Shown here piece after piece: positions 5,460 to 5,873 of a stretch of 27,323 nucleotides of DNA; positions within the stretch are counted from its first letter, which is position 1; the number at the start of each line of letters is the position of its first letter. A model generated the notes under the pieces. That model searched no databases. It saw nothing but the letters and a program-made list of their open reading frames with translations, and was not told where the DNA came from. A program made the position numbers and the translations under genes. Source of the DNA: a virus (Duplodnaviria > Heunggongvirae > Uroviricota > Caudoviricetes); the IMG/VR virus record IMGVR_UViG_2693429713_000014; one strand, given 5' to 3'.

Positions 5460-5873
5460 TTACATCACCGGACAATCATCAAACTCCGCGTTCCTCGCAT
5501 CATTAATGATGTAAGTAATCACCCCGAATATCGCGGGAGCAGAACCGTAACCGTCATCATCTACTGGTAGCATCTCCCTTCTCCCGCTCTCCAAATTAAT
5601 CAGGTGGTGTTGAGGATGAGTCCGATATCGCTTGATCCTGAACTCCCCGTCGATTGCACATATCAGCAGTGAGCCATCGCAGGCAGTAAGTGACGCATCT
5701 ACCACAAGCAGCGCCCCCAGGAATATTCCTTCCCTGAAATGTGAACGCGATGCCCGCATGAAGTAAGTCGCTGCTGGCTGGCTGGCTGGCTGGCTGGCTG
5801 GCTGGCTGATAAGATGCTGATCGAGTGAGATCCTCGTTTCAACGTAATCGCTGGCCGGTGAAGGGAACCCCAT
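5460..5873 (-). CDS. UmuD'-like protein (LexA/S24 peptidase C-terminal domain), no umuC partner
   Basis: Residues GFPSPASDYVE...LLVVDASL...AIDGEFRIKRY resemble UmuD from about residue 25 onward. Start chosen at the ATG at 5873-5871 with GGAGG nine nt upstream; the track ORF extends further 5' without an RBS. Confidence 0.7.
   Translation of the reverse strand: MGFPSPASDYVETRISLDQHLISQPASQPASQPAATYFMRASRSHFREGIFLGALLVVDASLTACDGSLLICAIDGEFRIKRYRTHPQHHLINLESGRREMLPVDDDGYGSAPAIFGVITYIINDARNAEFDDCPVM
5771..5808. repeat. Tetranucleotide microsatellite (CTGG)8, with flanking partial units, inside the UmuD'-like CDS
   Basis: Directly visible: ctg(ctgg)x8ctg. On the coding strand it encodes SQPASQPASQPA. 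Confidence 0.95.

Follow-up and report, generated by a model that had tools for sequence, protein, structure and literature searches.

The window (the whole 27,323-nucleotide, 27-kb stretch of DNA analysed here) carries on its minus strand a humD-family gene whose product starts MGFPSPASDYVETRISLDQ. Next to it lie a convergent SRAP gene on one side and, on the other, a gene of 79 codons followed by a divergent dinI-family gene. The features of this region are the following:

4791-5459, plus strand: SRAP (YedK/HMCES-type) gene, convergent to humD; product starts M-C-G-R-F; Pfam SRAP, E=8e-51, profile positions 1-214 of 214
5460-5873, minus strand: humD-family gene; ATG at 5873, TAA at 5462-5460, 137 aa plus stop, in frame in the window
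5773-5808, minus strand: tetranucleotide repeat, (GCTG)9 on the plus strand and hence (CAGC)9 on the coding strand; TRF period 4, 9.0 copies
5876-6118, minus strand: gene of 79/80 aa; phrog_3893, E=1e-36; its TAG ends 2 nt before the humD ATG
5883-5887, minus strand: Shine-Dalgarno sequence GGAGG for humD, 9 nt before the ATG and within N-G-G codons of the 79-aa gene
6134-6153: second CTG-N10-CAG match, CACTGGATAAAAAAACAGCA, probably fortuitous
6158-6177: predicted LexA (SOS) box, CACTGTGTATCCATCCAGTA, a CTG-N10-CAG match in the gap that separates dinI from the 79-aa/humD operon
6193-6435, plus strand: dinI-family gene, divergent, 80 aa; Pfam DinI, E=1.6e-20; DinI family protein in RefSeq

These genes belong to the accessory region of a complete e14-like, myovirus-type prophage integrated at icd, whose annotation runs bluR-ycgX-iraM, an icd fragment, an HNH endonuclease gene, a hypothetical gene, SRAP, humD, dinI, an invertase gene, tail fibres and baseplate. 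Positions 5300-6300 are 100% identical to Escherichia coli fEC.1 (NZ_CP085638); seven further complete genomes match at 98-99%. A megablast search against phage genomes returned no close phage. Strain fEC.1 additionally carries intact host umuD and umuC genes, 24 kb away.

Several lines of comparison place the gene in the HumD family. Its product scores 207 bits, with a cut-off of 120, against the NCBIfam equivalog NF051876 ("HumD family translesion DNA polymerase"), aligning end to end (residues 1-137 on profile positions 1-129 of 129), and does not reach the NCBIfam UmuD model NF007621 (81.2 bits, cut-off 110). Over its full length it is 65% identical to HumD of P1, P7 and SJ46, and it is about 62% identical to N15 gp26 and to the HK639 protein named UmuD. 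HMMER alignments against PDB sequences match residue 2 to residue 1 of crystallised UmuD' (1umu_A, E=5e-19) and to residue 25 of full-length UmuD (8gmt_B), so that the product begins exactly at the end-point of RecA-stimulated UmuD cleavage. With M-GFPSPASDYVE as its first residues, it has neither the N-terminal arm nor the cleavage site in the alignments to UmuD' and UmuD, and the MGFPSP start recurs in 100 of 100 homologues of 120-140 aa. Together with the GGAGG ahead of the ATG, this bears out what an earlier note on this DNA had proposed, namely that the protein starts at the mature UmuD' N-terminus. The same note's view of a constitutive UmuD' form that lacks a umuC of its own is supported as well; this is the very definition of HumD, and the protein is a full-length member of that family. 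Judged by its sequence, then, the gene is a HumD-family member, a UmuD homologue that would be made already in the UmuD' form, and a stand-alone, pre-cut UmuD' without umuC is an already known kind of protein rather than a new one. The absence of umuC was likewise confirmed: a tblastn search with E. coli UmuC found no UmuC-like sequence in the whole 27-kb window (best E=2.4), and no Y-family polymerase is annotated in the matching RefSeq prophage. The next gene is indeed the convergent SRAP gene at 4791-5459, which abuts the humD stop codon with zero spacer. In a pattern scan, the one terminator-like hairpin for humD (5433-5452) falls within the coding sequence of SRAP, at its 3' end.

HumD of bacteriophage P1 was characterised in 1999 (McLenigan et al., as cited in passages of PMC7092418 and PMC4713147) and is described, in the passage of PMC7092418 that cites this work, as an already activated, shorter UmuD. 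The P1 genome record states that HumD "functionally complements E. coli UmuD'" and annotates a LexA site in its regulatory region. Like the window gene, the P1-type proteins (P1, P7, SJ46, D6, N15 gp26, phiKO2 Gp23 and HK639 UmuD) have a 129-aa core that starts with M-GFPSPA; they share the motif A-x-x-S-H-x-R-E-G-I with it, and their genes also stand alone without umuC, follow a LexA box and are carried by temperate phages. Three differences set the window gene apart. It alone has an 8-aa (QPAS)2 insertion, which stems from a (CAGC)n tract of variable length; a 79-aa gene, absent from P1 and N15, stands in front of it and is translationally coupled to it; and it lies beside dinI and SRAP in an e14-like prophage, whereas P1 humD lies beside phd-doc.

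Compared with E. coli UmuD/UmuD' (the accessory subunit of Pol V; 1umu, 1ay9, 8gmt), the window HumD belongs to the same S24 fold family and is 41% identical to UmuD residues 25-139, with the GFPSPAxDYVE arm and the Lys equivalent to K97 conserved. It differs from UmuD in lacking the 24-residue N-terminal arm and the Cys-Gly (Cys24/Gly25) cleavage site, in carrying a 14-residue C-terminal extension (NDARNAEFDDCPVM), and in lying outside any umuDC-type operon, next to a convergent SRAP gene. The GDSM loop that holds the Ser of UmuD reads RSHF in the window HumD and is one residue shorter. Thus, the earlier note was right that the Ser region is altered (ASRSHF against ASGDSM of UmuD), but the alteration is not peculiar to this gene: across the 100-homologue alignment the region follows the motif A-[SGA]-x-[ST]-H-[FY]-R-E-G-I, with P1 HumD reading AADSHHREGI, and the "altered catalytic Ser" appears from this alignment to be a general HumD trait. 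Because of the shorter loop, the register of the UmuD nucleophile Ser60 is ambiguous, MAFFT pairing it with S44 of the window HumD and HMMER with H45. In the same alignment the S44 column holds Ser in 73%, Thr in 26% and Ala in 1% of the sequences, and Lys81, the counterpart of UmuD Lys97, is 98% conserved. An AlphaFold2 model of HumD reached a pLDDT of just 39.8 from an alignment of 97 sequences, all at least 67% identical; this alignment is too shallow for the model to be usable, and we therefore place the (QPAS)2 insertion in a loop from the sequence alignment to UmuD' only.

The region upstream of humD suggests SOS control. At the position of the predicted LexA box (6158-6177), relatives read TACTGTATATCCATCCAGTA, and 27 of 30 loci have a canonical box (TACTGT-N8-ACAGTA-like) ahead of the 79-aa gene, at a distance of 31-68 nt. 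From this arrangement, the 79-aa gene and humD would form a two-gene operon under predicted LexA control, sharing its box with dinI. We rejected the neighbouring match at 6134-6153 as a LexA box, since relatives read CCGGATAAAAACACAG there and it is not conserved. DinI keeps RecA-mediated cleavage of UmuD in check, and SRAP/YedK protects abasic sites in single-stranded DNA; with these roles, the humD cluster would be a small DNA-damage-tolerance module.

The first gene of the putative operon encodes a protein that matches no Pfam or NCBIfam model and ends in the C-terminal tail ...RTFQLFNPNGGL. Its 70 database homologues, mostly exactly 79 aa long, bear the NCBI label "DNA polymerase V", a mislabelling with no apparent basis but gene neighbourhood. 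AlphaFold2 modelled the protein with a pLDDT of 90 as helix, strand, helix, helix, strand, strand, and on this model a winged-helix fold is predicted. When one genome per species was considered, an M-GFPSP ORF followed the 79-aa gene directly in 19 of 24 loci, being either of the HumD type or of a shorter, ~107-aa type, and phages of Pantoea, Erwinia and Klebsiella show the same pairing. The junction between the two genes takes the form of an overlap (TAATG or TGATG), of stop+1 or of stop+2, that is, all three relative frames, while the AACGGAGG arrangement, in which the humD Shine-Dalgarno sequence falls within codons of the 79-aa gene, is found at most other junctions too. The occurrence of all three frames indicates two coupled cistrons and counts against a programmed fusion; on the same ground we ruled out programmed frameshifting or read-through at this junction. 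Natural fusions of the 79-aa protein to an S24 domain, searched for among 1.84 billion representatives, were few and were joined through an alternative frame, as expected of frameshifts or assembly errors, and they lend no support to a fused ancestor that is still circulating. A conserved, LexA-box-preceded partner gene of humD is new here, and its product is a candidate new Pol V-associated factor.

The ~107-aa ORFs behind the 79-aa gene were seen at Klebsiella/Raoultella loci (L027-L033, L049, L050, L057 and L070) and in Pantoea and Erwinia phages (L040 and L041). They keep the GFPSPAxDY(V/I)E head on a much diverged body, with no precomputed Pfam hit at the Klebsiella/Raoultella loci checked, and by sequence appear to be a second, undescribed UmuD'-like subfamily. 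At three Pantoea-type loci (L062, L064 and L065), a gene of the 79-aa family is followed, at a distance of 0.5-1.3 kb, by a complete umuDC. In L043 (3894-5106), an error-prone long-read assembly, a gene of this family that follows a LexA box leads directly into umuC, and neither umuD nor humD intervenes.

We then turn to the repeat inside humD. The (CAGC)9 tract (TRF score 72, 100% matches) is the one perfect microsatellite reported in the window; the earlier note mentions neither this tract nor the 79-aa gene and the LexA box. It occupies codons 23-34 and adds eight residues, QPASQPAS, between "...DQHLIS" and "QPAATYF...", a point that falls, in the alignment to UmuD, between Ile45 and Gln46, where the arm meets the core. 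None of the 100 aligned homologues of 120-140 aa has an insertion at this site, and the nearest intact relative (L006) carries (CAGC)3. Across E. coli, we observed 11 tract lengths (4, 6, 7, 8, 9, 10, 11, 12 [interrupted], 13, 14 and 15 units), distributed as follows:

Complete genome fEC.1: 9 units
AH01: 11 units; Ecol_545 and C1 likewise, by match length
CDF6: 13 units
GF8: 14 units; GF75 and GF161 likewise, by match length
Draft assemblies and protein look-ups: 4, 6, 7 and 12 units, with two 12-unit alleles that have one point interruption each
Metagenome and IMG/VR contigs: 8, 9 and 13 units
Contigs reached via the neighbouring SRAP gene: 8, 10 (four places), 11 and 15 units

Multiples of three units keep the frame, each such step adding one QPAS, and the nine units of the window are in frame, with 8 aa added. 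At other lengths HumD stops after ~30 to 45 native residues and an out-of-frame tail. Tract length is the sole humD difference among the near-identical E. coli loci compared: an 11-unit locus equals the window over 3.5 kb except for the tract, and a second haplotype, marked by five SNPs, carries 9, 13 and 14 units. The tract thus appears, from these comparisons, to change fast relative to point mutation, and it is very probably hypermutable. An adaptive value of the resulting switching of humD is possible, though we regard it as somewhat doubtful. Out-of-frame alleles make up seven of eight complete genomes, two of three metagenome or viral contigs and six of seven distinct places among the SRAP-anchored drafts. 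Most alleles in these three samples, which are unbiased by gene calling, are thus out of frame, and this gives no support to selection for the ON state. The exact in-frame nine-unit protein was found in 44 collection blocks, compared with 110 for the adjacent SRAP gene, both counts coming from exact-sequence indexes that are incomplete and that disagree with each other (the 137-aa protein was absent in one look-up and present on 24 contigs in another). Both 12-unit in-frame alleles (P0125 and P0126, 141 aa) carry one substitution in the tract (Ser to Asn and Ala to Thr), a point interruption that would be expected to stabilise the ON frame.

The substitution pattern of the gene itself shows purifying selection in its past. 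Pairwise dN/dS of humD against four relatives is 0.07-0.10, and the branch private to the window lineage has 11 synonymous and six non-synonymous changes, giving a branch dN/dS of ~0.17. Some of the changes in the window lineage fall in conserved columns (position 89, for instance, has changed from Pro to His), and the 8-aa insertion, unique to this lineage, could impair function.

In its architecture, the tract resembles those of simple-sequence-repeat contingency loci such as the tetranucleotide tracts of lic and mod in Haemophilus influenzae (background in PMC2651432 and PMC11868660): it is a perfect tract in the 5' part of an ORF, and the number of its units varies among near-identical strains, with a shift in frame. 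It differs from them in that humD encodes a cytoplasmic DNA-damage-tolerance factor on a prophage instead of a surface structure or a methyltransferase, in that the host is E. coli, and in that a change of frame is known here from comparison of tract lengths between strains. A review of phase variation cites, for E. coli, only switches by DNA inversion and methylation. The slippage tract inside humD is new here.

Given these observations, we consider it likely that the prophage HumD provides a ready-made UmuD' to host UmuC during the SOS response, and that slippage of the (CAGC)n tract toggles it. By analogy with P1 HumD, DNA damage would lead to LexA cleavage and derepression of the 79-aa/humD operon. 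HumD dimers may then bind host UmuC, as expected from what is established for Pol V (UmuD'2C; Tang et al. 1999, as cited in a passage of PMC7092418) and from P1 HumD, and the two would make up an active translesion polymerase of the Pol V type that need not wait for the slow, RecA-mediated cleavage of UmuD. Replication slippage in the (CAGC)n tract, within the arm/core linker, would switch HumD on and off; since tract lengths other than multiples of three truncate HumD, lysogens would differ in HumD production. For the window HumD, we infer that it binds UmuC, acts in mutagenesis and tolerates the 8-aa insertion, and the same goes for any adaptive value of switching. UmuD cleavage normally delays error-prone synthesis. 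By removing this timing checkpoint, a prophage copy of HumD would alter the speed at which a damaged lysogen becomes mutable, and if slippage does toggle humD, E. coli populations would have, in SOS mutability, a heritable trait that switches rapidly.

The RefSeq annotation tells a different story, and two other accounts of the gene draw on it. RefSeq labels humD as an "S24 family peptidase, frameshifted" pseudogene at window positions 5460-5989, starting at an MKQANDW... codon inside the upstream 79-aa ORF. According to the first of these accounts, the gene makes a longer, cleavable UmuD-like product with its N-terminus upstream, either in this PGAP annotation or in the ORF that extends in frame to TTG 5972; database proteins of 162-167 aa (P0003, P0004 and P0017) are extended in the same manner, and the upstream ORF has a tail similar to the arm of UmuD. 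However, the extension overlaps the conserved 79-aa gene, which lies in another frame, and when the window was compared with a diverged relative, substitutions in the overlap at codon positions 1/2/3 numbered 17/11/21 in the 79-aa frame and 21/17/11 in the extension frame. The latter thus varies least at its third position, showing the 79-aa frame to be the coding one and the upstream extension of humD to be non-coding. A longer frame with an intact cleavage site had been named by the earlier note as the counter-case to its reading, but the extension to TTG 5972 has neither a UmuD-like arm nor a Cys/Ala-Gly site, Met and not Cys or Ala preceding the Gly. Moreover, a stop codon separates the 79-aa ORF from humD in every lineage, and the overlap, stop+1 and stop+2 junctions exclude a conserved programmed frameshift. 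As for the 167-aa form, P0017 (Salmonella enterica, 427 members) starts MKQANEWIEWYVTTFRDVSTQEGE and then continues in the humD frame, so it arises from a fusion of frames, which counts against the longer product. We therefore consider a longer cleavable product extremely improbable. Most likely, the fused Salmonella P0017 form served as the reference that led to the RefSeq "frameshift" call on the intact nine-unit allele; an intact in-frame allele thus carries a pseudogene label, and the correction for this allele is new here. P0017 and P0018 (223 aa) are both Salmonella joins of the 79-aa and humD frames through a frame change, with Asp in place of Gly as the first HumD residue (MDFPSP).

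The pseudogene label, given in eight of eight complete genomes, would also fit a decaying gene, that is, a humD no longer needed, with a neutral, runaway tract that is in frame in the window by chance, as expected for one length in three. The predominance of out-of-frame alleles (seven of eight complete genomes and most of the anchor-based and metagenome samples), the substitutions in conserved columns of the window lineage and the common humD remnants in E. coli, such as a 37-aa C-terminal piece on 130 contigs, all point in this direction. Against decay stand the branch and pairwise dN/dS values and the fact that, tract length aside, no stop, indel or substitution was found in humD across near-identical E. 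coli loci. The in-frame nine-unit protein is, furthermore, present in 44 collection blocks next to 110 for SRAP, both 12-unit alleles (141 aa) are in frame with the tract interrupted by a point change, and the fused reference protein accounts for the pseudogene call at nine units. Decay is on balance unlikely. Somewhat less probable still is that HumD, together with its 79-aa partner, DinI and SRAP, acts as a modulator and not mainly as an activator of Pol V. Such a modulator might, for example, titrate UmuC, UmuD or RecA filaments, and we give the same low credence to its protecting phage DNA or tuning prophage induction in this way. The 79-aa gene is tightly tied to M-GFPSP ORFs across Enterobacterales, including the 107-aa forms that Pfam S24 does not match, and it clusters with DinI and SRAP; Lys81 (UmuD Lys97) is 98% conserved even though self-cleavage is unneeded. 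On the other hand, P1 HumD, 65% identical to the window protein, is reported to complement UmuD', and P1 and N15 HumD work without a 79-aa partner. The supply of ready-made UmuD' to host UmuC, toggled by slippage, hence remains our preferred reading.

It is tempting to speculate further that the 79-aa protein and HumD form a "split UmuD", in which a UmuD-like arm would dock in trans, the whole unit being toggled by slippage in the E. coli lineage of the window. Pol V would in this case be controlled by a non-covalent partner instead of by RecA-mediated cleavage. The C-terminus of the 79-aa protein reads TF(Q/M)L(F/Y) followed by six residues, the same register as TFPLF-SDLVQC before Gly25 in UmuD, and when the 79-aa protein is joined artificially to HumD minus its Met, the product aligns to E. 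coli UmuD across the junction without a gap (ENRTFQLFNPNGGL|GFPSPA against EIVTFPLFSDLVQC|GFPSPA in UmuD). This fixed-register score was matched by 0.1% of tail shuffles and 0.26% of window 14-mers (p ~0.001-0.003 in a post hoc test, with all signal coming from TF(P/Q)LF). Within the family's main branch, the tail hardly varies. Support also comes from the conserved adjacency in three frames, from the LexA box before the module in 27 of 30 loci and from the association of the 79-aa gene with umuDC in loci of the Pantoea type and, in another assembly, with umuC. The idea is weakened by the NGG codons of the conserved NPNGG tail, which double as the humD Shine-Dalgarno sequence, and by a divergent branch (MB20 and HK225) that lacks the tail motif. 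We hold a split UmuD to be improbable; if true, Pol V would be governed by a partner protein acting in trans. LexA and lambda CI-type repressors offer a similar order, with a small winged-helix/HTH domain, a hydrophobic motif six residues before a Gly and an S24 domain, and the 79-aa protein and HumD add up to 208 aa compared with 202 for LexA; unlike in these repressors, the two are separate polypeptides without an Ala-Gly site. Reading TFQLF as a beta-clamp motif was set aside as speculation only, the motif being absent from the divergent MB20/HK225 branch.

Beyond the intact gene, C-terminal humD remnants (MLPVDDDGYG...CPVM) are widespread in E. coli, among them P0122 (37 aa, 130 contigs), and also occur at the ends of Stx-converting phage genomes (hits H69-H76). 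The wide spread of these short remnants suggests that humD is often truncated in other prophage lineages. The RefSeq annotation next to humD includes a partial "hypothetical protein" pseudogene at 5996-6097 (plus strand), where the conserved minus-strand 79-aa gene (5876-6118) is unannotated. Between the HNH endonuclease gene and SRAP, a plus-strand ORF of 261-271 aa (3578-4393) had no Pfam or PHROG match and is conserved in all loci that have the same prophage end. Finally, the window departs from fEC.1, CDF6 and some drafts only from ~7203 onward, in the tail-fibre region that adjoins the invertase gene (6564-7151), and there it matches AH01 and GF8, a difference that is consistent with an invertible tail-fibre segment present in opposite orientations through a Pin/Cin-type recombinase.
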